Sequence record: ON470580
DNA length: 38,458 nt
Source: Escherichia phage vB_EcoM-606R7
Direction: 5' to 3' (one strand)
This document shows positions 2,312-38,458 of the stretch, in pieces. The notes below the pieces were generated by a model. The model saw only the letters and a program-made list of their open reading frames with translations. It did not search any database and had not been told where the DNA came from. The position numbers and the translations under genes were made by a program. How positions within the stretch are numbered: the stretch's first letter is position 1; each line of letters opens with the position of its first letter.

Positions 2312-5300
2312 CCCGACGCGATGACTGCATAATTGACACAACCCTGCTGTCGATCAGATCCACCAGTCCCCTGGCTGAGCGCGCATCTATCTCGCCATTG
2401 CTCCCTTGATTCTGAATGCTGATGTGATACACGGGAGAATAAACAAATCCACCACCACCATTCACATTTCCAATGGCCCTGACCCCAAGAGAGCCGTCCG
2501 CTGCCCGTGTCAGTGGCATGATTGCTTCAGGCCCGGCCTCGCCCATCAACCCGGCACCTTTCGCAAAAGCAAAATACGTCGGTGTATCCACAATAGTGTT
2601 ACTGTAAGCACTCAGATTTGCCGATGTGTAAACACCACCTTTTGCGTTTGCCACTGCCCCCGAAATCCATCCGCCGACCGTACCAAGCCACCCTCCGGCA
2701 CCGGAGAGTGATTTCAGTCCGTTAACAATGGCTGCATTCATCAGAATTTTTGAAACTTCCCGGAGAACTGAACTCCCCCAGTTCCTCCAGTCCACAACAT
2801 TCCCGGCCAGTGCATCGGAAATATTTGATACCAGCCCGTCCATCGTGGAAACGACAGCATCTGCCGCCTGTGAAGCATAATCGGTGGCACTGTCTGCCCA
2901 GTTGGTCAGTCCCTCCTGGAGTCCGGCATTCCAGTTATTACGTAAAGCATCGGCCTTTGCATAATAATCCTGCTGATCGCTGAGACGCTCTTCCAGATAT
3001 TTTTTATTCAGTTCTTTCTCCTGTTTCCACAGGGCTTCTTCAATTTCTCCGGCCTGATACTGTCTCAGCAGCTCGTTATTTTTCTGCTCAAACGCCTGCC
3101 GGATACTCCACATTTCCTGGAGTCGTTCACGCATCCGTGAGCCTTCACCATATCCCAGCAACTGCGCTTCGTCAGATGCCCGGGCACTGGCATTACTGTC
3201 CGCCAGACTGCTCTCATACGCAGCAAGCTGCTCACGAATCTTTTTCTGGTCGATGAGTGCTGCATTCTGCAAAAGCGTTTTTTTCTGCGCTTCTGACAGG
3301 GTTGATAATTCGCCCTGACTGACCTGATATTTCATCTTAGCCAGTTCAGTATTCTGCCCTGCCAGTGCTATTTGTTCTTTTTGCTGTTTAATCAGCCGTT
3401 TATAAATATCTTCTGTTTTTTCCGCTTCGGTCTTTTTATACGCTTTGGGTTTATTTGCCTGGTTATTTCGCCAGGCATCCAGTGAGTTATTGATATAATT
3501 CTGTCTGGCTGTCTGATACGCCTCTCCCACAAAGCCGAGATCATCCGCAGCATAACCCAGGCGGGCACGCTCACGGGCTTCCCCCTTCAGGCGGGACAGA
3601 GCCAGTTCGCGCTCGCTGTTATTCAGTGCGGTCTGCTGTTTATCATCCAGGGTTGCCTGTGGTAGCCGTAACGGTACATTCACCAGCCCCTGTCGCTGCA
3701 GAAGTAATTCATTACCGAGCCCGAGAAGGCGATTAAACTCGGTATGCTGCCCATTCATGATCAACAGGGACTGATACGCTTTGTTTTGTTCCGCGGCCTG
3801 TTGACGGATCAACGCCACCCGTCGCTCCTCCAGCCCGGCAAGCACATCCTGAATGGATTGCGCTTTGCCCTGCATTTGTGTGAGACGGGACTGTTCAACT
3901 GCCAGTTGATTTGTTGCTTCTGCAAGCCCTTCTGTGACAGTTTTTACCGACGTCATGTGGTTAATCATAAAACCGTTATCGGTTGTCCAGCCCGGGTTTG
4001 CCAGCACATACTGATAGCCAGCAATTTTTTCCTGTAAGGATTTAATCTTACTTTTCTGCTCGTCAATTAACCTGTTTTGCTCATCAAGTGCCTGCCGCGT
4101 CTTTTCCTCATTATCTGACGCTTCAGGAAGCGACATTGCCGACGTTTTCTGGCGAATTTCGTCGATTGTTGCGGCATACTGGCGTGCAGATTCTCTGGCC
4201 TGCTCCTGATTCTGATACATCGTGTACCAGGCCGTCGCCCCCAGCATGACGAGTCCCGGCACACCACCAACCAACCCCAGCGCACCACTTAACAGACGAC
4301 TCCCCACTGACGTGACAGTATTCAGCGTTGTCTGTGCAGCTGTTCTGGCCGCAATATTACGGGTAAGTGACGCCTGGGCAGCTGTCAGCTTCGCTTCTGC
4401 TGCGGCCTGCCTTTCGGTACCGCGAGCAGCAACAACCGCCTGTTGCGCACGATAAACCGCCGCACGCGCCCTGGCGGTTGCTATCTGTGTCCCCCGAAGT
4501 TGCGCTTCAGCAAGAGCCACTTCGTTTCTGGCTGCAGTAATTAATCCGGCAGTTGCAGATCCAGCAGACGACGCCATATTGCCAAAATATCGGGCTACCC
4601 CGACGGCAACCAGTGCGCCAGCTGCAGCAGCCACGGTATCAATATTGTCTGCAACACCATTCAACACCCCGGTGAGTGTCTTTGTCACTCCGCTTGCCTC
4701 GTTCGCACCACCAACCCAGGCCATAAAGGCGTTTTCAACTTTGGTTGCAGAGGATGAAACAGTATCAGGCATTGCTGCATATTCATCACGCAACGCCCCA
4801 AGCTGACTAATCAGTGCAGGAACAACCTTATCGGCGGTCAGTTTTCCGTTATCCGCCATGGCCTTCAGATCCTTACGGGCAACACCCATTCCCGCAGCCA
4901 GCGCACGAATAACACGATCGCCGTTCTCATTCACAGAGTTAAATTCTTCACCGCGCAGCACTCCCTGCGCCAGTGCCTGACTGAACTGCGTGATCACCGA
5001 ACTGGCTTCTGCTGTACTGGCACCGGATAATTTCAGGCCCGTGGAGATCGCCTCGGTGACTTTCAGTACCTCCTCAGAACTGTAGCCATACTCCCGCATG
5101 GAAGCTGCAGAGCGGGCAAAAAGGCTGGCGTTATCAGAAAACGCCGTTCCCGTTCTCTGGCTGATTGCCATTAATTCACGTTGTGATACCTGAAAATCAT
5201 CACTGGACTGTGAAGCCTGCTTCAGACGGGCATTTACTGAATTCCACTCATCGGCGAGAGAAATAAGATGACCGGTAGCAAAAGCTCCGGCAAATGCCCC

Positions 5301-14374: not shown

Positions 14375-14725
14375 TCAATTGATGCGTTCGCGCGCTGTTT
14401 TTGCTTTATGACAGGGCCAGCACAGACTCTGCAGGTTACTGTCTGCATCCGTGCCACCATGAGCTTTCGGAATGATGTGGTCCACAGTTCTGGCTTCAAC
14501 GGCTCTCCCATTGCGCAGGCAGTTCTGACACAGATGATTATCACGCTTCAGTATGCGCGCACGTATGGCATCCCATTTCGAGCCATAGCCACGCTGGTGG
14601 CGGCTCAGTCCGCGTTGATGCTGTACCCATCCTTCGCCACGATGTTTATCGCAGTAACCAGAACTGTCTGTGGTTGTACCTGCACATCCACGCTTACGGC
14701 AGGCGCGTGGGATTCGTGATGGCAT
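14375..14725 (-). CDS. HNH endonuclease (packaging-associated)
   Basis: Cysteine pairs CRKRGC and CQNC with the HNH core DHIIPKAHGGTDADSNLQSLCWPCH; sits upstream of the terminase genes as in HK97-like cos phages. Confidence 0.85.
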   Translation of the reverse strand: MPSRIPRACRKRGCAGTTTDSSGYCDKHRGEGWVQHQRGLSRHQRGYGSKWDAIRARILKRDNHLCQNCLRNGRAVEARTVDHIIPKAHGGTDADSNLQSLCWPCHKAKTARERIN

Positions 14726-14767: not shown

Positions 14768-15247
14768 CTACTTAATGCACTGAGTGCGGATATACTCCTG
14801 TGCCCCTTCCAGTTGCATCTGCATCGTCATCAGCCGCTCTCTGAGGGTGAAATAATCCCGTTCAGCGGTGTCTGCCAGTCGGGGACTGGTTGCATTATCC
14901 ACGCCGGAGGCGGTGGTGGCTTCACGCACTGACTGACAGACTGCTTTGATGTGCAACCGACGACGACCAGCGGCAACATCAGCGCGCAGAGTTTCATTTT
15001 CAGCTTTCGCATTGGCTAATTCTCTCGAGTACTTTGCATCGAGCGCAGCAACATCACGCTGACGCTGCTGCATGTCAGCGATGGTGGCGGTCACCTGCTT
15101 CAGCTCACTGACTTTTTTATCACGCTGTTCTTTGTAGGTGATGGCGTTATCACGGTAATGATTGACCGCCCACGACAGGCAGACGATGATGCAGATAACC
15201 AGAGCATAAATAATCGCGGCGACTCTGCTCACTGATCTATTCCCCAA
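14768..15247 (-). CDS. Rz: Spanin inner-membrane subunit Rz
   Basis: Near-identical to recalled lambda Rz ([25 protein letters not shown]...[28 protein letters not shown]). Confidence 0.85.
14830..15012 (-). CDS. Rz1: Spanin outer-membrane lipoprotein Rz1, embedded in Rz in the +1 frame
   Basis: 60-aa ORF with lipobox VVGC and a proline run ([30 protein letters not shown]), matching recalled lambda Rz1. Confidence 0.85.
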
Positions 15248-15762
15248 CAGGCTAATGCGCTTTCCTGGTCACGACGAATAACCTGTCCATAGCAGTTATT
15301 TGAACGTATGCGGCAATCGCGCCCACCATCTTTTATCCACCAGCGAATCGCCTCGCATGCGCCCTTACGATCACCGGCATTCAGCCGCTTATAAAACGTC
15401 GACGGAAAACACTTACCGGGGCCAATGTTATAGGGACAAAATGACGCGATACCCGCTTTTTGTGGTTCGGTCAGTGGTACTTTAATATTGCGCTCCACCC
15501 ATGCCAGCGCCTTATCACGCTCAATGGCGTTGACCTGGTCGCATTTTTCCTTCGACAGTTTCATACCGGGAAAAACGGGTTTTCCATCCACCATCGTGGC
15601 ACCCCGACAGATGGTCCAGATGCCGGAACCATCACGGTATGCCGTTGTGTGGTTACCTTCTTTTTCATCCAGAAACTGGTCGAGAATATCAGGCGCGGGC
15701 GCACCGACGGCAATCAGTGCCAGAACGGCAGCCGACAGGCCGTATCTGATTTTTGCGTTCAT
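15229..15762 (-). CDS. SAR endolysin (T4-type lysozyme, phage 21 R-like)
   Basis: N-terminal weakly hydrophobic signal-arrest-release segment ([16 protein letters not shown]) followed by the E-x8-D-x5-T catalytic spacing ([16 protein letters not shown]). Confidence 0.85.
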
Positions 15763-15825
15763 GGATATTTATCAGGATTTATCGGTTTCTGCCCACGGAC
15801 AGGTTTATCTGTTCCGGTCAGTGAC

Positions 15826-16176
15826 TTAAGGTTGTGATTCCGGAGGAGTCTTCAGAGAACCAGTAATTCTTCCTGGTAGCTTTCCTTTGTAGGTTATCCA
15901 TACATTCTGCGCCTCTAAAATTACGGGGCGCTTTTCCGGCGACTGCTCATCCCCTTCACATAACCCGGCAGCGACATCCAGGAAGACCTGTCTGATGCTC
16001 CTTCTGGCCGCTGCCTCATAAAACTCCAGCGCAGCACCTTCAACACGGTCCAGCGAGATGTCCAGGTCAAAAATTTCACCGTCAAAGCGTTCTTTGTCCT
16101 GTAATGCTAAAGTTACCGTAACTTTATTCTCAAAATTGCGGATCCCTTTCACAATCAGTTCATAGTTTTGAGTCAT
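15826..16176 (-). CDS. Hypothetical protein inside the lysis cassette (YdfR-like)
   Basis: 116-aa ORF between holin and endolysin; resembles the Qin ydfR product in position and, from memory, in sequence. Confidence 0.5.
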   Translation of the reverse strand: MTQNYELIVKGIRNFENKVTVTLALQDKERFDGEIFDLDISLDRVEGAALEFYEAAARRSIRQVFLDVAAGLCEGDEQSPEKRPVILEAQNVWITYKGKLPGRITGSLKTPPESQP

Positions 16177-16180
16177 TGAA

Positions 16181-16396
16181 TTACTCTCCCCGTGCAGCCT
16201 TACGCTTGTCTTCTCTGATTTTGAAGTACAGATTTGTCAGATAAGTCAGGAAGCCCAGAACCAGACTCCCCAGTACACCAATCGCAGCCCACTGTGAAGG
16301 ACTGACCTGATCAAGCCACTGTAAAAACCAGTAGCCAGCACTGCCTGCGGAGGTGCCGTAGGCAATGCCCGTTGAAATTTTGTCCATGGATTTCAT
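16181..16396 (-). CDS. Pinholin, phage 21 S-type, with dual-start motif
   Basis: 71-aa ORF starting [29 protein letters not shown], matching recalled S21; Met1 and Met4 give the antiholin and holin forms. Confidence 0.85.
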
Positions 16397-16456
16397 AGCC
16401 TCACCTCCGCAAATAACGGATGGCGTAGTTTTACACTGAGAAATGAAAGGGATTTG

Positions 16457-16482
16457 AAAAGAAAAACCCGCAAAAGCGGGCG
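16457..16482 (-). terminator. Terminator-like hairpin upstream of the holin gene
   Basis: Minus-strand RNA reads CGCCCGC-UUUU-GCGGG followed by UUUUU. Confidence 0.45.
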
Positions 16483-16688
16483 AAACGATATATACAGAAA
16501 GGAAAGCACTCTATCCAACAAACCAACCACAGTTAATTGGAATAAAAGCAGAGTGCTTATGAATGATCGCCTGCCCGAAGGTTAGTATTTCTGCACAGCA
16601 ATTTTGCAAAAAAAGGCGATCATTCATAACTTAAACGTCTTTCAGTCACTCCGGGATTTCCCATCATCGCAGACTGAAAGACTCTAAC

Positions 16689-16763
<75 letters not shown>

Positions 16764-16766
16764 ATA

Positions 16767-16842
<76 letters not shown>

Positions 16843-16844
16843 AC

Positions 16845-16921
16845 TGGACCGCCACCGGGGACTCGAACCTCGCACACTCAACTTAAAGGGTTGACGCTCT
16901 TTCCTGATGAGCTAGTGGCGG
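16845..16921 (-). tRNA. tRNA gene with an atypical anticodon loop (CCUUUAA; best guess anticodon UUU, Lys)
   Basis: Sits in the array with 2-nt spacers. Acceptor CCGCCAC/GTGGCGG (C1-G72), TAGCTCA D-arm start, T-loop TTCGAGT, CCA encoded; C at position 33 and one T-stem mismatch. Confidence 0.5.
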
Positions 16922-16922
16922 T

Positions 16923-16998
16923 TGGTGGCCCTTGCTGGATTTGAACCAGCGACCTGGCGATTATGAGTCGCTCGCTCTCACCACTGAGCTAAAGGGCC
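16923..16998 (-). tRNA. tRNA-Ile2-like (gene anticodon CAT; ileX/ileZ type, alternatively elongator Met)
   Basis: GGCCCTTTAGCTCAGTGGT...CGACTCATAATCGCC...GGTTCAAATCCAGCAAGGGCCACCA resembles recalled E. coli ileX. Confidence 0.75.
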
Positions 16999-17116: not shown

Positions 17117-17155
17117 ACAAAAAACCCGCTTGTGGGCGGGTTTTGTTTGCTTTTG
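17117..17155 (-). terminator. Bidirectional intrinsic terminator between Q and the tRNA array (tR'-like)
   Basis: Hairpin CCCGC-TTGTGG-GCGGG (17125-17140) flanked by A6 on one side and a T-rich tract on the other. Confidence 0.6.
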
Positions 17156-17195: not shown

Positions 17196-17224
17196 AATAT
17201 ATGCCTTTCAATCTACTTTTGCAA
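17196..17224 (-). promoter_or_regulatory. Candidate late promoter (pR'-like): -35 TTGCAA, 17-bp spacer, -10 TATATT
   Basis: Hexamers read directly on the minus strand at the 3' end of Q, about 40 nt upstream of the terminator. Confidence 0.5.
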
Positions 17225-17903
17225 CACTTTGCTTTGAAAATGCCGCCTTTTGTTTTGAACGTGTTCTCATTACAAACAATAAAGCCTCACTATCAAGTCG
17301 GTGAAAAATGTGTTTCATTGCAACCCAGTGACGAGTAAATGTTTTGGACCAGTTTTTAGTTGTCACTCCCGCCAGTAATGCCAGCTCCTGGTATTCATAA
17401 CCTTCCCCACCAAAAAGTTCTGCTTTTACTGCCTGCGCCGCCAGCCAGATTAATTTTTTCAGGCGTTCCTGCGTTTTCCCTGCAATTTTTCTGGTACCGG
17501 ATTGAGTATTAAATTCATTCCACGCCCACTGTGTTATCGCGATCTGATATTCCCAACAAATACTCCCGCTGTAACACCACAACAACCAGGCTTTATGATG
17601 TTCTTCAAGAGACAGAACAGCCCGCCGCCACGATGATGTCGAAAACTCAACCGGACTGACCAGAGGAATTGACGTCCCCTTCGCCAGCGATTGCTTTCCC
17701 GGGATTGGTGGATTATCCCGCGTTATCATTTTTCCAGTCACTTCATCGCGGTACCGGATTTTTTTTCGCCTGTAACGCCCTGTATCGAACATGGCATTCT
17801 CTTGCCAGGCTTCAAGCTGACCTTTTGTTGCCCCACTCAAATCAGCGGTGGCGATAATGAGCTGCTCACGCACAAACTGTAAATACTGGTTATTCATGCG
17901 CAC
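17208..17903 (-). CDS. Putative late-gene antiterminator Q
   Basis: 231-aa ORF directly upstream of the late promoter, terminator, tRNA and lysis block, and downstream of rusA; family assignment is mainly positional. Confidence 0.5.
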   Translation of the reverse strand: MRMNNQYLQFVREQLIIATADLSGATKGQLEAWQENAMFDTGRYRRKKIRYRDEVTGKMITRDNPPIPGKQSLAKGTSIPLVSPVEFSTSSWRRAVLSLEEHHKAWLLWCYSGSICWEYQIAITQWAWNEFNTQSGTRKIAGKTQERLKKLIWLAAQAVKAELFGGEGYEYQELALLAGVTTKNWSKTFTRHWVAMKHIFHRLDSEALLFVMRTRSKQKAAFSKQSVAKVD

Positions 17904-20354: not shown

Positions 20355-20510
20355 TTACTCCTCAGGTTCGTAAGCTGTGAAGACAGCGACCTCCGTCTGG
20401 CCGGTTCGGATTCGTACCTCGCAGAGGTCTTTCCTCGTTACCAGTGCCGTCACTATGACGGTTAAACAGATGACGATCAGGGCGATTAGCATCGCCTTTT
20501 GCTGCTTCAT
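20355..20510 (-). CDS. hok: Hok/Gef-family type I toxin (HokD/RelF-like)
   Basis: 51-aa sequence MKQQKAMLIALIVICLTVIVTALVTRKDLCEVRIRTGQTEVAVFTAYEPEE matches recalled HokD; long untranslated leader upstream (20511-20800). Confidence 0.85.
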   Translation of the reverse strand: MKQQKAMLIALIVICLTVIVTALVTRKDLCEVRIRTGQTEVAVFTAYEPEE

Positions 20511-20800
20511 AGCCTGCTTCTCCTTGCCTTTCGGCACGTAAGAGGCTAACCTAGATTTGCCGTTCATAGATTGAGCCTCAGATTAATGTTAAGCGTCTTG
20601 CAGGACGCGTAATGTTAACTGGGGCTTTTCTCTACCTGCCGTTGGTGTTCATGCCCGAGGCAGATAGCCTCAAGCACCCGCAGCAATTCTACTTAACTCT
20701 CCTTTTCCCGCAAACCGTTTTTACCCCCAGCGGCAAATCGAATACACCACCAGCGCCACCGCCATCGCAATTCCTACCGTTGTGAATGCTTCAGGCCAAG

Positions 20801-27230: not shown

Positions 27231-27288
27231 TTTCTGGTGACGTTTGGCGGTATCAGTTTTACTCCGTGACTGCTCTGCCGCCATTTTT
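27231..27288 (+). ncRNA. dicF: DicF-like small RNA (cell-division inhibitor)
   Basis: TTTCTGGTGACGTTTGGCGGTATCAGTTTTACTCCGTGACTGCTCTGCCGCC followed by ATTTTT matches the DicF sequence as I recall it; GGCGG...CCGCC terminator stem; sits between ydfC and dicB. Confidence 0.6.
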
Positions 27289-27924: not shown

Positions 27925-30368
27925 ATGAGCACTGATAAAGAAGAATTTGCACTATATTGCGAAGCAAAAAATGACAAAGTAAGAAAACGCCTGGGAATTA
28001 AAGGTGGTTTTTACTGGACTACAGCAAAAAAATTATCTGTTGCAATCTCCCGCTGCATTACCGCAATGGATGACAACGATTATGATGAAGACGACTTTAA
28101 AAAACCCGTCCGCGTCAATTTGCCCGTTGTTGACGACCTTCCGCCAGAAGGCGTGTTTGATACTGAATTCTGCAACCGCTATGAAAAAGGCGGGAAAGAT
28201 GGCATCACAATGACATTTATCGGCCCTTCCCCCTCTGTTCAGGACAAACCAGCCAGCACTGACAATACCAACATCAACGGCGAAGACATGACTGAGATTG
28301 AGGAGAGCATGCTTCTGCCTGTCTCCGGTCAGGAACTGCCCATTCGTTGGCTTGCTCAACACGGCAGCGAAAAACCAGTAACGCACGTTTCACGCGACGA
28401 ACTCCAGGCATTACACATTGCACGGGCTGAAGAACTACCGGCTGTTACTGCCCTGGCTATTTCGCATAAAACCAGTCTGCTCGACTCGCTGGAGATTCGC
28501 GACCTCCACAAACTGGTTCGTGACACTGACAAAGTTTTCCCTAATCCTGGTAATTCAGACCTGGGACTAATAACTGCTTTTTTCGAAGCATACCTGGACG
28601 CTGACTACACTGATCGGGGTCTGCTGACAAAAGAGTGGATGAAAGGAAATCGTGTTTCACGCATCACCCGCACGGCTTCCGGTGCTAATGCTGGCGGTGG
28701 GAACAAAACCGATCGCAATCCGAATTTAGTACACACCCTCGACACACTGGATGTGGAGATTGCAGCAGCCACACTTCCGATGGATTTTAATATTTATGAA
28801 ATTCCGGGCAGCGTTTATCGTCGCGCANNNNNNNNNNAGTCCTGAAAAAAGAAAGTCCGTTCAAAGAATGGTCCGCAGCACTTCGTGCAACCCCGGGTAT
28901 TCTGGACTATTCCCGCGCCGCTATTTTTGCACTTATCCGAAGTGCACACCCTGAATTTTATCACTACCCGGGACGCCTTCAGGGGTATATCAACGCCTAT
29001 TTGACGGAAACTGATCACGAGAACCCCAGCAAGGAAACTCTCACAGCTGCCCGGCATACGCCGGAAAAAGATATCCTGGAAGAAATTAACCGCGAGGTGG
29101 TTACTGAGCGTGAAACAGAAGAAGAAAAACCACAACCATCTGACGCAATGGCAGGTGAACAGGCAACAACTGAAACAATGGAACCGGATACAACTGAACA
29201 TTGCCAGAACGCGCAGTCGCTGGATGCTCAGTCGCAGGTGAGTTCCGCTAACCAAGTAAAAGTCACCGCTGACGAAGTAAACAAAATTATGCAGGCAGCC
29301 AATATCAGCCAGCCTGACGCCGATAAGTTACTTGCTGTATCGCGTGGTGAATTTGTTGAGGGGATTAGCGACCCTAATGATCCGAAATGGGTCAAGGGGA
29401 TCCAGACTCGCGATTCTGTGAACCAGAACCAGCATGAATCGGAACGGAACTACCAAAAAGCGGAACAAAACAGCCCAAATGCGTTACAAAACGAGCCAGA
29501 AACGAAACAATCCGAACCAGTAGCGCAACAGGAACCGGAAAAAGTCTGCACCGCCTGCGGTCAGAGCGGTGGCGGCAACTGCCCTGATTGTGGCGCGGTG
29601 ATGGGCGACGCAACATACCAGGAAACATTCGATGAAGAGAATCAAGTTGAAGTTCAGGAAAATGATCCGGAGGAAATGGAAGGCGCTGAACATCCACACA
29701 AGGAGAACCCTGGCGGCAATCAGCATCACGCCAGCGATAATAAAACTGGCGAGGCGACAGATCCCTTAATTAAGGTGAATGGTCATCATAAGCTCACATC
29801 CACCAGCAGAGCGGGGATTCATCTGATGATCGACCTTGAAACCATGGGAAAAAATCCCGATGCCCCGATTATCTCAATAGGCGCAATATTTTTCGATCCA
29901 CAAACCGGAGATATGGGACCGGAATTTAGCAAGACCATCGATCTGGATACTGCTGGCGGAGTCATTGATCGTGACGTCATTAAATGGTGGCTGAAGCAAT
30001 CACGTGAAGCGCAGTCTGCCATTATGACCGATGAAATCCCGTTAGATGATGCACTACTGCAATTGCGGGAATTTATCGACGAAAACTCCGGTGAATTTTT
30101 TGTTCAGGTCTGGGGTAATGGGGCCAACTTCGACAACGTGATTTTACGCCGTTCATACGAACGACAGGGTATCCCCTGCCCGTGGCGCTACTGCAACGAT
30201 CGCGATGTACGCACAATCGTTGAGCTGGGGAAAGCCATAGACTTCGATGCCAGAACTGCTATCCCATTCGAAGGTGAGCGCCATAATGCACTTGATGACG
30301 CTCGTTACCAGGCAAAATACGTTTCAGCTATCTGGCAAAAACTGATCCCGAGTCAGGCTGATTTTTAA
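27925..30368 (+). CDS. Exodeoxyribonuclease VIII-like protein (YdfE-like N-terminal part, DEDDh-type 3'-5' exonuclease C-terminal domain); spans a 10-N gap
   Basis: Reading frame stays open from 28839 to 30368, and the 27925-28827 ORF is open up to the gap, so one roughly 810-aa product is likely. C-terminus carries [15 protein letters not shown] and HNALDDA motifs. Reading frame across the gap is not verifiable. Confidence 0.55.
28828..28837. other. Assembly gap (10 N)
   Basis: Run of n characters. Confidence 0.99.
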
Positions 30369-30426: not shown

Positions 30427-30630
30427 ATGAGCAGCTTATTTTTAACCGAAGATGAATTGCTAATATTAACGGGCTGCAAATATGCAAGCCACCAGCGAAA
30501 ATGGTTAATGGAAAACGGGCTTCCGTTCTATACCAATCGTAGTGGCAAACCGATTGTCAGCCGGGAGCTATTTACCTGCAATAAAACTTTACCACCACGC
30601 GAGGTAGAGCCGAATTTTGGTGCGATCTGA
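30427..30630 (+). CDS. xis: Excisionase (Xis)
   Basis: 67-aa ORF immediately upstream of int with a one-base stop/start overlap. Confidence 0.6.
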   Translation: MSSLFLTEDELLILTGCKYASHQRKWLMENGLPFYTNRSGKPIVSRELFTCNKTLPPREVEPNFGAI

Positions 30631-31655
30631 TGGGAAGACGAAGGAAAAATCCTGAACACGAAAAATTACCTCCAAATGTATACCCAAATAAATATAGTTA
30701 TGTATGGAAACCAACATCCAGAGAATCTGTCACACTAACCGCCATCAAGGATGGTTTGGCTGCTTTATGGAAAAAGTATGAGGAAACTGTAAATAATCGC
30801 GATCGTGCAATGACATTCGGTCGCTTGTGGGAAAAATTCCTCGCCAGCGCCTATTACAGTGACCTTAGTCCAAGAACACAAAAAGATTATCTGCAACATC
30901 AAAAAAAGTTGCTTGCCGTATTCGGTAAGGTACCAGCGGATTCCATAAAACCAGAACACATCCGTCGATACATGGACAAAAGAGGGGAGCAGAGTAAAAC
31001 GCAAGCCAACCATGAAAAAAGCAGTATGTCCCGTGTTTACAGTTGGGGGTATGAGCGAGGGTACGTGAAGGCTAACCCATGTGCAGGTGTAAGTAAATTC
31101 AAGGCCAAAAACCGCGAACGATATGTAACCGACAAAGAATACCAGGCAGTATTAAGCGTTGCACCTCTTCCTGTTTTTATCGCAATGGAAATTGCCTATC
31201 TGTGTGCAGCGAGGGTTTCCGATGTGTTATCGCTGAAATGGGAACAGATTGGAAACGACGGGATATTCATCCAGCAAGGGAAAACCGGAAAAAAACAGAT
31301 AAAAGCATGGAGTCCACGATTACAGGCAGCGATCGAAAAAGCAAAACAGTTACCAAAATCTGCCTATGTGATCAGCAATCAATACGGCAACCGATATATG
31401 TACAAAGGCTTTAACGAAATGTGGGTAGAAGCAAGAAATCGCGCAGGCAAAATTTCAGGTATTTTAACCGACTTCACCTTTCATGATCTGAAGGCGAAAG
31501 GAATTTCAGACTATGAAGGAAGCAGCCGGGATAAGCAACTTTTCTCTGGTCACAAAACCGAAGGGCAAGTGCTAATCTATGACAGAAAGGTTAAAGTTTC
31601 ACCAACACTTGATGTCCCGTTACCTGAAAATATTCCAAGAAAATATTCCAAGTAA
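30630..31655 (+). CDS. int: Tyrosine integrase (lambda Int family)
   Basis: 341 aa; N-terminus MGRRRKNPEHEKLPPNVY parallels recalled lambda Int MGRRRSHERRDLPPNLY; C-terminal catalytic region with FHDLKAKG; ends 53 bp from tRNA-Ser. Confidence 0.85.
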   Translation: MGRRRKNPEHEKLPPNVYPNKYSYVWKPTSRESVTLTAIKDGLAALWKKYEETVNNRDRAMTFGRLWEKFLASAYYSDLSPRTQKDYLQHQKKLLAVFGKVPADSIKPEHIRRYMDKRGEQSKTQANHEKSSMSRVYSWGYERGYVKANPCAGVSKFKAKNRERYVTDKEYQAVLSVAPLPVFIAMEIAYLCAARVSDVLSLKWEQIGNDGIFIQQGKTGKKQIKAWSPRLQAAIEKAKQLPKSAYVISNQYGNRYMYKGFNEMWVEARNRAGKISGILTDFTFHDLKAKGISDYEGSSRDKQLFSGHKTEGQVLIYDRKVKVSPTLDVPLPENIPRKYSK

Positions 31656-31707: not shown

Positions 31708-31797
31708 TGGCGGAGAGAGGGGGATTTGAACCCCCGGTGGAGTTGCCCCCACTCCGGTTTTCGAGACCGGTCCGTTCAGCCGCTCCGGCATCTCTCC
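31708..31797 (-). tRNA. serU: tRNA-Ser (anticodon CGA), serU-like; probable prophage attachment target
   Basis: Hand-folded: GGAGAGATGCCGGAGCGGCTGAACGGACCGGTCTCGAAAACCGG... with long variable arm and CCA; 3' end faces the integrase gene. Confidence 0.8.
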
Positions 31798-31890
31798 GTT
31801 CAGATGGTTGCCATGATGCCAGGAAATTTGGCATTTTAACAGTCCCTGTCCGTGCAATTTTGTTCAAGTGACGAGTTTGCGAGCAAAACG

Positions 31891-32688
31891 ATGATTAAGT
31901 GGCCCTGGAAAGTACAAGAATCAGCACATCAAACTGCCCTTCCCTGGCAGGAAGCACTATCGATCCCCCTTTTAACGGGTCTGACGGAACAGGAACAAAG
32001 CAAATTAGTCACTCTTGCCGAACGTTTTTTACAGCAAAAGCGGCTTGTTCCTTTACAGGGCTTTGAACTGGATTCATTAAGAAGCTGCCGGATAGCACTT
32101 CTATTTTGCCTACCCGTTCTGGAGTTAGGACTGGAATGGCTGGATGGTTTTCATGAAGTCTTAATTTATCCTGCGCCATTTGTGGTCGATGATGAATGGG
32201 AAGACGATATCGGTCTGGTGCATAACCAACGTATTGTTCAGTCAGGTCAGAGCTGGCAGCAAGGGCCTATCGTTTTGAACTGGTTGGATATACAAGATTC
32301 TTTTGATGCATCTGGTTTTAACCTGATTATTCATGAAGTCGCTCATAAGCTGGACACCCGTAACGGCGATCGCGCCAGCGGAGTTCCCTTTATTTCGTTG
32401 CGTGAGGTTGCTGGCTGGGAACACGATCTTCATGCTGCAATGAACAACATTCAGGAAGAAATCGAATTAGTTGGTGAGAATGCAGCGAGCATTGATGCTT
32501 ATGCTGCCAGTGATCCTGCTGAATGTTTTGCCGTACTTTCTGAATATTTCTTTAGCGCCCCAGAACTTTTTGCTCCTCGTTTCCCTTCATTGTGGCAACG
32601 TTTCTGTCAATTTTATCAACAAGATCCTTTGCAGAGACTGCATCACGCTAATGATACAGACTCGTTTTCGGCGACGAATGTTCATTAA
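31891..32688 (+). CDS. mtfA: Mlc titration factor A (MtfA/YeeI), chromosomal
   Basis: Starts [28 protein letters not shown] and contains the metalloprotease-like HEVAHKLD motif; matches recalled MtfA. Confidence 0.85.
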
Positions 32689-32788: not shown

Positions 32789-32864
32789 TCCTCTGTAGTT
32801 CAGTCGGTAGAACGGCGGACTGTTAATCCGTATGTCACTGGTTCGAGTCCAGTCAGAGGAGCCA
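32789..32864 (+). tRNA. asnT: tRNA-Asn (anticodon GUU), asnT-like; HPI attachment site
   Basis: TCCTCTGTAGTTCAGTCGGTAGAACGGCGGACTGTTAATCCGTATGTCACTGGTTCGAGTCCAGTCAGAGGAGCCA read directly. Confidence 0.9.
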
Positions 32865-34134: not shown

Positions 34135-35439
34135 CTACACCATTAAATAGGGCGCAATGCTCGCTAATTTCTCCCGGGTTTCTGTCAGTTCGCGTTCCGG
34201 CGTAGATTGCGCGATGATTCCCGCCCCCGCCTGTATCCAGCAGCGCTGGCTATCCTGAAATACGGAACGCAGAACTAGCGCCGCATCAAAGCGCGTATCG
34301 TCCAGCAGCAGGATTGCGCCGGAATAAAGCTCTCGCGGCGTCTTCTCAATTTGCATAATCGCGTTCAGAGCAGCATTTTTAGGGATACCTGAGGCGGTAA
34401 TCGACGGAAACAGCACGGTAAACGCATCCCAGGCATCCTTGTTTTCCGAAAGCTGACCGCTCACGCCAGACCCCAGATGCTGAACGCTGCCGCGCTGGCG
34501 AACCGACATTAAATCTTCAACCACCACGCTGCCCGGCTGGCAAACAGCCTCCAGTTCAGCAATAGCTTCTTTGACAGAAAGGATATGCTCAAGCACCTCT
34601 TTACTGTCGTGCAGCAGTTCTGCCTCTTTCGCCTTATTATGCTCCGGGTTTCCCATGCGATCGCGGGTGCCCGCAAGCGGTTCAGTGACCACTTTATTGC
34701 CCATCACTGACATCACCAGTTCCGGGCTAAAGCCCAGCGCTTCGCGTCCTTCCTGACGGAACATAAACGAGCGCACAGGCGTGTTTGCCTGCCGCCCGTA
34801 TAACAGCGTGGCGGGCATATCAATCCGCGATGGCAGGGGAATGGCGCGCGAGACAATCACTTTGACATACTCGCCACGGCGGATCTCCGCAACGGCGCGC
34901 GCAACCTGTTGTTTATATGCCTCACCATTGAGGGCGGTATCCACCGCCAGTGGTGCGTTCTGCGTCGTTGTACCGGCCTCTTTTACCCACTCGCACAAAC
35001 GTCGGCACCCGTCGGCGGAGTCCGCATAAACGGTGACATTTCCCTTTTCAAAAATAAGTTCTTCACGGGGAACGGTTAACGTCAGCAGCGGCCACTCCCC
35101 GGCGTTAAAGGCAATCCCCCGCGCATGCGCCGCAAAGTTGAACCCAACCTGTCCATATACCCGACGTCCTTTCACCTGAGGATGCGCCATAAAACGACGC
35201 GCGCAGTCGGCAATGGAATCCACCGCCCATTTTTGCTCCCCGGCATCATCAATAAATGTCGCCTGCGTTCCGTCGGCATTAATGTGCAGCCGTGCCTGGC
35301 ACCCTTTGCCTAAATACCAACAGGGTTGACGCTCATAGACATAACACTCTTCTTCTGCGAACTGGCGTAAAACGCCAGAAATCGTCGGTAGCCATTGTTC
35401 CTCTGGTAACGCCAGATGTAGAAATTCACTGATTTTCAT
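34135..35439 (-). CDS. ybtS: Salicylate synthase YbtS (Irp9)
   Basis: 434-aa MKISEFLHLALPEEQWLPT... chorismate-utilising enzyme fold; recalled as YbtS; position next to ybtX. Confidence 0.85.
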   Translation of the reverse strand: MKISEFLHLALPEEQWLPTISGVLRQFAEEECYVYERQPCWYLGKGCQARLHINADGTQATFIDDAGEQKWAVDSIADCARRFMAHPQVKGRRVYGQVGFNFAAHARGIAFNAGEWPLLTLTVPREELIFEKGNVTVYADSADGCRRLCEWVKEAGTTTQNAPLAVDTALNGEAYKQQVARAVAEIRRGEYVKVIVSRAIPLPSRIDMPATLLYGRQANTPVRSFMFRQEGREALGFSPELVMSVMGNKVVTEPLAGTRDRMGNPEHNKAKEAELLHDSKEVLEHILSVKEAIAELEAVCQPGSVVVEDLMSVRQRGSVQHLGSGVSGQLSENKDAWDAFTVLFPSITASGIPKNAALNAIMQIEKTPRELYSGAILLLDDTRFDAALVLRSVFQDSQRCWIQAGAGIIAQSTPERELTETREKLASIAPYLMV

Positions 35440-35466
35440 CCCTTACCTCTCTGTGTTATTCCCGGA

Positions 35467-36747
35467 TCAATCAATTGCGCTTGTCATCAGTTCTCTTGCC
35501 GAATGCAGCCGGATATAAGCAACCCACGCCGCCAGCAACGTGAATGCCCCGGCAAACAGGAAGCAGGCCGCATAGCCAAAATGTTGAGCAACAACGCCAC
35601 CGATAACGCCTGCCAGAATGGCGATTGCCGCATCAGTACATTGAAAGAGGGTGAAGTCGACACCGGCCTGCAAAGGCGATGAAAGCGACATCAGCGTGGC
35701 GTAAAGACAGACCAGCGCGCAGGCCAGCGAAATGGACTGGACAATGACCAGACACTGGAGAATCTGCAGCAGCAGATGACCCGGCGCCATCATGAGCGTC
35801 ATCACCACCGCCAGCAGCGCGATCCCCTGGACGCCATAAGCCGTCAACAGCGCTCTGCCGGGTGAGGTGTATTTCATCAGCAATCCGCCGGCCAGCGTTC
35901 CTGCTATGCCCGCTGCAATATTGCCGCCGCTGAACAACGCGCCCAATGCGGACATGCTCAACCCATGATCCAACAACAGCGGTGCCAGAAGAGGCAGCAC
36001 AAACCGCATGCCTGAATTCAGCATCAATACCAGCAGTAAGCCCAGGCGCGCCTGCTTCCTCCTTAGCGCATAACCTAACGCCGGAACATGCAGGATAGTC
36101 GCTGTTCGCGTCGGCTCCGTAATGCGCCACAGCGGGAGTGACAGCGCCATAATCAGCACCGCCATCATCAGCATGGCGACAGGCCAGCCGGATGCCGCCG
36201 ACAGCATCAGGAACACCCCGCCGCCGCACATCATTCCCAGATAGCTGCCGCCGACCTGCACGCTGTTTCCCCAGCCGTAACCCGTGCGGGTCAGTTGATC
36301 GACACAAAAGCCGTCGCTGGCGATATCAATGGTGGAGGCGACCGTGCCTGCCACCATAAACAGAACAAATAACGCGACGATTTGCGTATCGGGGAATCCC
36401 CCTTCTCGCCTAAACCAGCCAATCGCTGCGGCAATAGTCAGGATCGCCGCTAGCGCGACCTGACCACGCAGGATTAACATGCGGGAACGGCGTTCCTGGC
36501 TACCGGGCGGAAGCCGCCAGCGCTCGATCCACGGCGCCCAAATAAACTTCAGCGCCCAGGGCAGCATAAACAGGGTTGTCGCACCGGCAAGCGCCAGCGA
36601 ACCGCCAGCAGCGCGCACCAGCGCGGGTAAGGACTGCATAGACAGCGCCGATACCAGACTCTGCGTCACATAGACGCCGGCAATAGCAAAAATCACCCGT
36701 CCGGTCGTCAACGTCGGCGGTTTCACATTCGACTGAACATCACTCAT
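35467..36747 (-). CDS. ybtX: MFS transporter YbtX
   Basis: Multi-helix hydrophobic ORF; start taken at MSDVQSNVKPP, whose ATG overlaps the ybtQ stop (ATGAGTGA). Confidence 0.75.
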   Translation of the reverse strand: MSDVQSNVKPPTLTTGRVIFAIAGVYVTQSLVSALSMQSLPALVRAAGGSLALAGATTLFMLPWALKFIWAPWIERWRLPPGSQERRSRMLILRGQVALAAILTIAAAIGWFRREGGFPDTQIVALFVLFMVAGTVASTIDIASDGFCVDQLTRTGYGWGNSVQVGGSYLGMMCGGGVFLMLSAASGWPVAMLMMAVLIMALSLPLWRITEPTRTATILHVPALGYALRRKQARLGLLLVLMLNSGMRFVLPLLAPLLLDHGLSMSALGALFSGGNIAAGIAGTLAGGLLMKYTSPGRALLTAYGVQGIALLAVVMTLMMAPGHLLLQILQCLVIVQSISLACALVCLYATLMSLSSPLQAGVDFTLFQCTDAAIAILAGVIGGVVAQHFGYAACFLFAGAFTLLAAWVAYIRLHSARELMTSAID

Positions 36748-38458
36748 GCACCCACTCTCCAGACGCGGAAACCCCGTCGTCGCGCCACACGCGCGCGGCC
36801 ATTTGCGCCTGCCACAGCGCCTGATAACGCCCATGATGTGAGAGCAATTGCGCATGAGTACCCTGCTCAACCACCTGTCCCTCTTCCATCACCAGAATGT
36901 TTCCGGCCCCGGCGATGGTGGATAAACGGTGAGCGATGATAATCACCGTCCGGTTGTAAACCAGGTTATCGATCGCTTTTTGCACCGCCAGCTCGCTTTC
37001 AATATCCAGCGCGGCAGTCGGTTCATCGAGAATGACGACTGGCGCGTTTTTCAATAACGCTCTGGCAATGGAAATCCGCTGGCGCTCGCCGCCCGATAGC
37101 TGGCCGCCCATCTCTCCCATTGGCGTCAGCCAGCCTTGCGGAAGACGGGAAATAAACTCAAGGCACTGCGCCGCGCGGGCGGCCTCTTCTACCTCCTGCC
37201 GCGTCGCCTGTGGGCGCGCGATACGGATATTCGCCAGCAGCGTGTCATCAAACAGCCAGACATCCTGGAAAACAACAGAAATCAGGCTATTGAGCTGTTC
37301 CGGCGTCAGGCGGCGAATATCGACGCCGCCAATAGAAATCTGCCCTTGCTGCGGATCGGCATAGCGCATTAACAGTTTGGTGACGGTAGTTTTGCCTGCG
37401 CCGGAGGCACCCACCAGCGCGCTCATACTGGCTGCCGGGAACGTCAAAGAAACATGATTAAGCGCGTGGCCGTCGCCTTCTTCGTAGCGATAGCTGACGT
37501 TGTCAAAGCGGATATCGTAACGTTCCGGCATCTCGCTTTGCTCTGCGACGGGAAGCGGTGCTATCGCCATAAACTGCTCAATCCGTTGCAGGGCGCTGGC
37601 GATCAGTTCCACAACCGAGGTGTAGCTGATAAACATCGCCATCGGTTCTGCGAAGCGCATAATCATCGCGACGGCGGCAATCAAAAAGGCGAGGTTCAGA
37701 GTGCCCGTCACTACCCAGACGATCCCGGATAACACCACCACCTGTAGGCCCAACTCCACGACGCTGGCGATCAGCATCGTCGCGCCAGCGCCCTGACGGT
37801 GAGTGCGGGTCTGTAAGTTTTCCAGCGCATTGAAATGCGCCAGCAGCGCCCGGCTTTTATCGGCATCGCTGCCGCAGGTGCGCAATACCATCATCCCCTG
37901 AGCAAATTCAACGATATCGCCGCTCAGACGCTGGTGCGCTTCCCCCAGCGTCTGCATTTGTCGCCGCATCGCCGGGCGGCGCCAGTAATAAAACGGCACC
38001 AGCAGAGGGAAGATCAGCAACATCACCAGCCCCAGCCGCCAGTCTATCCACAATGTCGCCAGCGACGCCGTCAGCGGCGTGACAATGGTGAGCAGCAAAA
38101 TATTGGCTATCGCAATAACATAATTGAGGTTTTCATCCACGCTGCCCAGCAGCAAGGCGTTCATTTCACCCGCCCTGCCGCGCTGGAGCTTCTCCAGCGG
38201 CACGCGGCGTAACTGCTCGCCAAGTCGCAGGCGCAACTCATGGGTGGCCTGCGCCAGATGACCACGGTATTCAAAGCCCAGGCCATACCAGCGTAGCACC
38301 AGCGTCACAATTGCGGCGACGCTGAAGGCCATAGCCCAGTTAAGAAGTTGCGGCGCGTCTCCCCGTAACAGCGCATCAATGATCGGATAAAGACAGGCAA
38401 AGGCGATCCCCTGCATGAATGCCGCCAGCAACAGCGCCAGCATACTGCGTCGCAGCAT
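36740..38458 (-). CDS. ybtQ: ABC transporter permease-ATPase fusion YbtQ (5' end beyond window edge)
   Basis: Transmembrane domain followed by Walker A GASGAGKTT, signature LSGGERQR and Walker B VILDEPT; ORF runs to the window edge. Confidence 0.8.
   Translation of the reverse strand: MLRRSMLALLLAAFMQGIAFACLYPIIDALLRGDAPQLLNWAMAFSVAAIVTLVLRWYGLGFEYRGHLAQATHELRLRLGEQLRRVPLEKLQRGRAGEMNALLLGSVDENLNYVIAIANILLLTIVTPLTASLATLWIDWRLGLVMLLIFPLLVPFYYWRRPAMRRQMQTLGEAHQRLSGDIVEFAQGMMVLRTCGSDADKSRALLAHFNALENLQTRTHRQGAGATMLIASVVELGLQVVVLSGIVWVVTGTLNLAFLIAAVAMIMRFAEPMAMFISYTSVVELIASALQRIEQFMAIAPLPVAEQSEMPERYDIRFDNVSYRYEEGDGHALNHVSLTFPAASMSALVGASGAGKTTVTKLLMRYADPQQGQISIGGVDIRRLTPEQLNSLISVVFQDVWLFDDTLLANIRIARPQATRQEVEEAARAAQCLEFISRLPQGWLTPMGEMGGQLSGGERQRISIARALLKNAPVVILDEPTAALDIESELAVQKAIDNLVYNRTVIIIAHRLSTIAGAGNILVMEEGQVVEQGTHAQLLSHHGRYQALWQAQMAARVWRDDGVSASGEWVHE

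Follow-up and report, generated by a model that had tools for sequence, protein, structure and literature searches.

The window that we analysed is a 38,458-nt stretch of Escherichia phage vB_EcoM-606R7 (record ON470580). ORF listing together with profile searches gave the following order on its minus strand: the antiterminator gene Q, four tRNA genes, a hairpin, a holin, a 116-aa ORF, a lysozyme, Rz/Rz1, an HNH endonuclease and the terminase genes (Table 1). Downstream of Q, the co-oriented holin, ORF, lysozyme and spanin genes make up a lysis module, that of a Qin-like lambdoid prophage. An earlier note had placed a pinholin and SAR endolysin pair, with an extra ORF between them, at 15826-16396. 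This is the arrangement we found, although that interval holds only the holin and the ORF, and the endolysin lies outside it at 15229-15762.

Q is the upstream boundary of the cassette's late operon, and all of the cassette genes are expected to be carried on the late transcript. The candidate late promoter and the GC-rich hairpin near Q occupy the place of lambda pR' and tR', and it is by this position that we provisionally assign them. Q-modified polymerase would presumably read through the terminator-like hairpin that precedes the holin. The four-tRNA array is placed on the late transcript between Q and the holin; its CAT-anticodon member was called Met by ARAGORN and is given as tRNA-Ile by RefSeq in a near-identical prophage. 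At the other end of the cassette, an HNH endonuclease gene is followed by one for a P27-family small terminase, as is typically seen in HK97-like cos packaging modules.

Table 1. Features of the lysis region and prophage end (coordinates of the window), followed by relatives of the 116-aa ORF that consist of the core alone (coordinates of the core and partner gene pair, by locus).
Feature	Position	Strand	Basis or remark
Antiterminator Q	17208-17903	-	PF06323 (Phage_antiter_Q), E 8.6e-92; RefSeq homologue "bacteriophage antitermination protein Q"
Candidate late promoter, TTGCAA-17-TATATT	17224->17196	-	consensus scan only
GC-rich hairpin with T/A runs	17121-17144	-	consensus scan only
Four tRNA genes: Met/Ile2-type CAT, Lys-UUU, Thr-UGU, Gly-UCC	16689-16998	-	ARAGORN and Rfam tRNA
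Terminator-like hairpin, GCCCGC-TTTT-GCGGGT plus T run	16466-16484	-	between tRNA array and holin
Class II holin, phage 21 S type, predicted pinholin, 71 aa	16181-16396	-	PF04971
116-aa ORF, YdfR family	15826-16176	-	PF07041 (DUF1327)
Conserved DUF1327/YdfR core, residues 1-75, pI 4.6	15952-16176	-	PF07041
Variable tail (…RPVILEAQNVWITYKGKLPGRITGSLKTPPESQP), residues 76-116 plus stop	15826-15951	-	alignment of 72- to 287-aa variants
63-nt spacer before endolysin	15763-15825	-	junction comparison
Predicted SAR endolysin, T4-lysozyme-family muramidase, 177 aa	15229-15762	-	PF00959, E 1.4e-24
i-spanin Rz (longest ORF)	14768-15247	-	PF03245, E 7.2e-50
o-spanin lipoprotein Rz1, inside Rz in another frame	14830-15012	-	PF06085, E 3.9e-19; phrog_3198
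HNH endonuclease gene	14375-14725	-	between spanins and P27-family small terminase
Tyrosine integrase	30630-31655		abuts tRNA-Ser-CGA; prophage end
tRNA-Ser-CGA	31708-31797	-	
M90 peptidase gene, mtfA-like	31852-32688		
tRNA-Asn-GTT	32789-32864	+	
Evi (L005), E. coli phage	2501-3040		core gene in holin/endolysin slot
L006 = L011, Pantoea prophage	4001-4542 (L006)		core gene between Q and lambda-type holin with GH19 endolysin
L007, L008	4001-4548		core gene between tail genes I and J
L015			core gene between tail genes I and J
L010, metagenomic phage	4001-4542		core gene upstream of another holin and T4-type lysozyme
L017, L018	4140-4773 (L017)		core gene immediately after tape-measure gene

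Against PF04971 ("Bacteriophage P21 holin S"), the holin scored 121.5 bits (cutoff 26, E 1.4e-35), and it also matched phrog_9876/phrog_20, which are labelled "holin". Its N-terminus, MKSMDK, does contain the phage 21 dual-start motif that had been claimed for it (Met1-Lys2-Ser3-Met4), with Met1 and Met4 as candidate starts and Lys2 in the longer form only. In phage 21, the dual start yields the holin S21-68 and the antiholin S21-71, which has one extra positive charge (PMC9636201). Hydropathy reached its maximum of 2.02 at residues 37-53, in the second segment, while the N-terminal segment is Gly/Ala/Ser-rich and weakly hydrophobic (score ~0.3). This pattern is compatible with two transmembrane segments, the first of which would be able to leave the membrane, although sequence does not establish topology. 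Judged by its family, the holin would form small heptameric channels that depolarise the membrane without passing the endolysin. A small hairpin enclosing both holin AUGs was predicted in the RNA at 16380-16440 (minus strand), with a minimum free energy of -17 kcal/mol and a z score of -2.0 against shuffles, a weak signal; such a structure may relate to dual-start control.

The endolysin possesses E35, D44 and T50, the Glu-8-Asp-5-Thr triad, and it aligned in register with the phage 21 lysozyme chains 3hde (from residue 31) and 3hdf and also with RrrD 4zpu, its similarity to R21 being distant only (phmmer E 4e-16). At the sequence level, residues 7-24 are uncharged, weakly hydrophobic and 50% Gly/Ala/Ser, and are preceded by K4 and R6. 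This composition, the triad residues and the 3hde alignment bear out the SAR N-terminus and intact triad spacing previously ascribed to the protein. A survey of Stx phages likewise lists the same endolysin and holin families as "predicted" SAR endolysins and pinholins (PMC8136144). The enzyme is thus a predicted SAR endolysin that would be tethered to the membrane, freed on depolarisation and active after refolding. Downstream, the likely start of Rz is a GTG at 15232 that overlaps the endolysin stop as GTGA, and the RefSeq homologue of this gene is 465 nt long.

The extra ORF begins 4 nt past the holin stop, with a GGAG Shine-Dalgarno sequence within the final codons of the holin gene. A domain search, which the earlier note had suggested, did find a conserved domain in its product: residues 1-112 matched PF07041 at E 7.8e-44 (148.3 bits, cutoff 25), the DUF1327/YdfR family, to which no function is assigned. 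Several similarly function-less PHROG families were matched as well, including phrog_406 and phrog_2091 at E 1e-67. We are nearly certain that the ORF is a member of the YdfR/DUF1327 family, and both this family and the gene arrangement are already known, old and very common. Across Pfam, PHROGs and NCBIfam, DUF1327 was the only domain matched, and we found no similarity to any known lysis regulator (T4 RI/RIII, P1 LydB, Mu releasin). Nor did any of seven proteins, long variants and partner proteins (described below) among them, match a PADLOC defence model at E<=0.1. The ORF product is without a hydrophobic segment (its best 17-residue Kyte-Doolittle mean is 0.56) and acidic, with a pI of 4.9. 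It is therefore likely to be cytoplasmic, in keeping with its earlier description as soluble.

We compared synonymous and nonsynonymous changes over codons 1-72 between the window ORF and each of five homologues by the pairwise Nei-Gojobori method and obtained dN/dS values of 0.11-0.39, with some pairs near synonymous saturation (dS ~1.7). Given this purifying selection on the core, and given the start 4 nt after the holin stop with its GGAG, we conclude that the ORF is a real gene; the dN/dS values also rule out an artefact of ORF calling. Together with the profile E-values, they exclude a chance origin of what we describe here.

The closest named counterpart is the defective Qin prophage of K-12, in which YdfR (b1555, P76160) is part of the cassette essQ-ydfR-rrrQ-rzpQ/rzoQ. 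Order, orientation and the 4-nt spacing between holin and ORF are the same as in the window, both YdfR proteins match DUF1327, and identities to the window are 84% for YdfR core residues 1-74, 82% for the EssQ holin and 94% for the RrrQ endolysin. However, K-12 YdfR is a 103-aa protein whose basic tail (…SEKVESYLQHQYSFKIENPANKHERPHHKYL) is unrelated to that of the window protein, and the ydfR stop overlaps the start of rrrQ, whereas the window protein has 116 aa and is followed by a 63-nt gap. The prophage in the window also differs from Qin in that its ORFs for head, tail, packaging, integrase and repressor all seem to be intact. In the Stx1 phage BP-4795, ORF47 lies between S and R genes of the same types and is 63% identical overall to the window ORF, with a common tail motif, RPIILEAQ.V.ITY.GKLPG.ITGSLKTPP, although in that phage an antirepressor gene separates R from Rz. 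An equivalent of ORF47, left unannotated, is present in H-19B and in many Stx1a and Stx2c phages. Phage 21 itself (S21/R21/Rz21) has a holin of the same family, with the same 71-aa length and MKSM motif, and a lysozyme with the same fold, triad and weakly hydrophobic N-terminal segment, but the endolysin of the window is the 177-aa RrrQ/Stx-phage allele and resembles R21 only distantly. Phage 21 is not known to have a gene between S and R.

The gene is common in E. coli but optional beside its holin. With blastn, we matched it in 4349 of 5426 complete E. coli genomes (~80%), at up to 10 places per genome, and tblastn found it in 100 phage records, among them H-19B, BP-4795, YYZ-2008, Stx2 phage 86 and many Stx1a and Stx2c phages. 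Over 3.65 kb around the ORF, the window shares 99% identity with an E. coli Ecol_224 prophage, whose genes RefSeq annotates successively as "class II holin family protein", "YdfR family protein", "lysozyme", "lysis protein" and "HNH endonuclease". The 4-nt spacing after the holin recurs in all of the E. coli phages and prophages we inspected (Ecol_224, BP-4795, mEp460, PhiR12_2, Evi, K-12 and L016). On the other hand, only ~100 of the 437 phage records with this holin type (~23%) carry the ORF, and in PA2 and ev207 the endolysin follows the same holin type directly. Both phages place the endolysin behind the 4-nt spacer and Shine-Dalgarno sequence that serve the 116-aa ORF in the window, and in PA2 the junction reads GGGGAGAG-TAA-NNNN-ATG, as it does for the ORF. 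The earlier remark that the canonical model does not need this ORF therefore agrees with its distribution, and it is almost certainly an optional accessory gene. The family is narrow. It has 333 clusters at 90% identity (369 when the core profile was used), a search of 1.84 billion proteins yielded 88 representatives at 50% identity, and almost all of its members are from Escherichia and Shigella.

Family members share residues 1 to ~75, a core of ~72-75 aa, and then diverge into tails, for total lengths of 72, 76, 94, 103, 104, 114, 116, 161, 176, 183 and 287 aa. In members down to 25% identity, four core residues (Y5, Y53, E54 and A57) never change and three others (L7, V9 and G47) are almost invariant. 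The tail in the window is of the "RPVILEAQNVWITYKGKLPGRITGSLKTPP" type, ended early at 116 aa; the 176- and 183-aa forms extend into a helical, coiled-coil-like segment, and database entries often have truncated or frameshifted tails, some of them fused to holin fragments. When the gene is compared with that of BP-4795, the core has a synonymous divergence of 1.76 and the tail one of 0.26, and we therefore conclude that the 116-aa gene is itself mosaic, with a recombination breakpoint near AAGLCEG. AlphaFold2 models built from 22 diverse sequences consist of three antiparallel strands and one long helix over residues 1-75 (pLDDT 76-92), with no confident fold for residues 76-116 (pLDDT <50); an alignment of 13 close sequences only had given a poor model (pLDDT 51.5). 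We found no convincing match to a solved or predicted structure, and a profile search of PDB sequences returned noise.

The junction with the endolysin varies as well. In the window, BP-4795 and Evi, a gap of 50-130 nt precedes the endolysin, and it ends in a conserved, AT-rich stretch of ~35 nt that has no obvious Shine-Dalgarno sequence. The window's spacer shares its last ~35 nt (GAAACCGATAAATCCTGATAAATATCC) with BP-4795 and Evi, where they precede the same allele of the endolysin. By contrast, the ydfR stop overlaps the endolysin start (ATGA) in K-12 Qin and mEp460. Given that an overlap in some cassettes is replaced by an AT-rich gap in others, the translation signals of the endolysin must differ among cassette variants.

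Relatives that consist of the core alone (72-94 aa, 25-54% identical) were found in other genomes, in several genomic settings (Table 1). Directly downstream of the core gene, 9 of these 10 loci (Evi, L006-L011 and L017/L018) have a convergent gene of ~99 aa that belongs to phrog_25324; the exception, L015, has another convergent ORF. We found the core with its partner at four positions: in the holin/endolysin slot, in the Q/holin interval, at the junction of tail genes I and J, and past the tape-measure gene. Among loci, identity is higher for the partner (58-82%) than for the core (31-38%). The two genes of Evi converge on an intervening GC hairpin. The partner had no match in Pfam, PADLOC, NCBIfam or the PDB. 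A tblastn search of the window (E<=10) found no remnant of it, it was absent from the extended-tail variants inspected (L001-L004), and it is present in one record only of the phage collection. Searches of viral and metagenome contigs with four query sequences (A4, P0181, P0182 and P0185) found nothing, and the broad core alignment was too diverse for pattern design. Core and partner together look like a mobile two-gene module. However, since the partner is absent from both the window and the extended-tail variants, its function cannot be necessary for retention of the core. The conserved unit is the core, and not the tail or the lysis context, and the simplest reading is that it is a mobile late-region passenger gene that has settled at the holin/endolysin junction in E. 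coli lambdoid phages.

What might this core do? The experimental information on the family that we found in the literature concerns K-12 YdfR only, and the name "DUF1327" was met only in unrelated genomics work. The first 72 codons of K-12 ydfR were recovered three times in a genomic two-hybrid screen (Gopel et al., RNA Biol 2026, PMC13232886). Both the 72-residue fragment and the full-length protein gave BACTH signals with RNase E 1-597, so that residues 1-72 are sufficient, and Strep-tagged YdfR co-purified the FLAG-tagged RNase E catalytic half (1-598) on StrepTactin (PMC13232886). The YdfR eluate also contained much DNase-resistant nucleic acid, for which its authors left a contaminating RNA binder possible; overexpression did not slow growth and changed few transcripts, and no effect on RNase E activity was demonstrated (PMC13232886). 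Because the interacting fragment of K-12 YdfR is the conserved core, which is 84% identical here, we favor a cytoplasmic protein that is expressed late and would bind RNase E, RNA or both. We would give this reading an even chance of being correct, and an RNase E/RNA mechanism seems the most likely of the available options.

Several phages encode modulators of RNase E, such as T4 Srd, T7 gp0.7 and phiKZ Dip. Like the product proposed here, they are small, phage-encoded and directed at the principal RNA-decay enzyme of the host. For T4 Srd, binding to the N-terminal half of RNase E has been reported, the half that K-12 YdfR binds (PMC13232886). Our profile and structure searches detected no sequence or fold similarity between these three proteins and the 116-aa ORF.

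An obvious alternative, given where the gene sits, is that it encodes a dedicated cytoplasmic lysis regulator, either an antiholin-like or timing factor that acts on the N- or C-termini of the pinholin or a determinant of endolysin output through translational coupling. In all of the E. coli phages and prophages that we inspected, the gene occupies precisely the interval between a phage-21-type holin and the 177-aa endolysin. Its stop overlaps the endolysin start codon in K-12 and mEp460, and cytoplasmic antiholins do exist, T4 RIII being one (PMC9636201). In addition, the Keio ydfR mutant was an envelope-leakage (CPRG+) hit in a published screen (PMC3879167). Yet ~77% of the phage records with this holin type are without the ORF, its distant relatives lie among tail genes or beside unrelated holin and endolysin types, and the protein has neither a membrane segment nor a likeness to known lysis regulators in Pfam, PHROGs or NCBIfam. 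The 63-nt gap in the window also means that here the ORF is uncoupled from the endolysin. As for the Keio phenotype, read-through from the kanamycin cassette into the adjacent downstream rrrQ would explain it more simply; the rrrQ start overlaps the ydfR stop, and we set an envelope role aside as probably reflecting this polar effect. We consider a dedicated lysis regulator unlikely.

It is also conceivable that the ORF is one half of a mobile passenger module, made up of the core and phrog_25324, that serves the lysogen or acts in conflicts between phages (as an exclusion system, an anti-defence system or an antagonist pair), and that the copy in the window lost its partner and gained a tail. 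The recurrence of the convergent partner in 9 of 10 core-only loci at four genome positions, with a partner better conserved than the core, is as this idea would have it, and the gene on its own strand with a flanking terminator, as marked by the hairpin in Evi, is the layout typical of a lysogen-expressed passenger. Against it, neither protein had a PADLOC match, and the partner is missing from the window, from L001-L004 and from all but one record of the phage collection. We therefore regard such a role as unlikely; it would, in any case, be compatible with RNase E binding and not exclusive of it. Alternatively, the ORF might be a decaying, functionless remnant that is kept only by its position between two selected genes. 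Its highly mosaic tails, which are often truncated or frameshifted, range over proteins of 72 to 287 aa and are in some cases fused to holin fragments, would fit with decay, as would the low confidence with which the tail is predicted and the very narrow family (88 representatives at 50% identity). Decay would hardly leave the core with dN/dS of 0.11-0.39 even at dS ~1.7, however, or its invariant residues in place down to 25-35% identity in other genera, or an intact reading frame in thousands of genomes, and we judge it very improbable.

Under the RNase E/RNA reading that we favor, lysis itself would proceed by the pinholin route, as homology suggests: the holin would depolarise the membrane, the tethered lysozyme would then be released and refold, and the spanins would then break the outer membrane. 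The 116-aa ORF would take no part in these membrane steps. Its product, small, acidic and cytoplasmic, would combine the ~72-75-aa core with an exchangeable tail. Made late in infection, it would bind RNase E and/or RNA and in this way modulate how certain transcripts are processed or degraded; lysis timing would be affected indirectly, if at all. The processing of tRNA gene arrays is normally aided by RNase E, and this may or may not be related to the presence of a YdfR-family gene close to such an array in the window. A more elaborate proposal, which we offer as distinctly speculative and improbable in its entirety, is that the core is a phage RNase E adaptor or inhibitor that travels with the convergent, lysogen-expressed phrog_25324 gene, became fixed in the holin/endolysin slot of E. 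coli lambdoid phages, was there given new tails, and tunes the processing or stability of late transcripts (e.g., release of the tRNA array or the half-life of the lysis mRNA), thereby setting lysis timing indirectly.

We do not describe a new kind of element here: the lysis cassette is the textbook one, and annotations of the extra gene exist in thousands of genomes. What the comparison does is narrow the functional focus to the 72-75-aa core, which is not tied to one lysis system. A gene of the ydfR type occurs in ~80% of complete E. coli genomes and in many Stx phages, where it lies beside the genes for toxin and virion release. Should its product modulate RNase E in late infection, temperate phages would have an equivalent of the takeover of RNA decay by T4, T7 and phiKZ, and the protein could influence the release of toxin and phage from Stx lysogens.

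Other features of the window also point toward Qin. Rfam searches identified a DicF small RNA at 27232-27283 (plus strand, 73 bits) and a sok antitoxin RNA at 20505-20679 (minus strand, 102 bits), beside which a hok-type toxin is to be expected. Together with the cassette resembling essQ/ydfR/rrrQ, these RNAs mark the prophage as a relative of K-12 Qin in which many more ORFs seem to be intact. The tRNA-Ser gene, which the integrase abuts, is the probable attachment site. Beyond the tRNA-Asn gene, at 34135-38458 (minus strand), Pfam domains alone identify a chorismate-binding enzyme of 434 aa and an MFS transporter of 467 aa, followed by a long ORF; this region resembles the start of the yersiniabactin high-pathogenicity island (ybtS, ybtX, ybtQ) inserted at asnT. 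In the early/recombination region, a 455-aa ORF (29001-30368, plus strand) has an Rv2179c-like 3'-5' exoribonuclease domain (E 2e-66) and adjoins an exonuclease VIII-like gene at 27925-28845.
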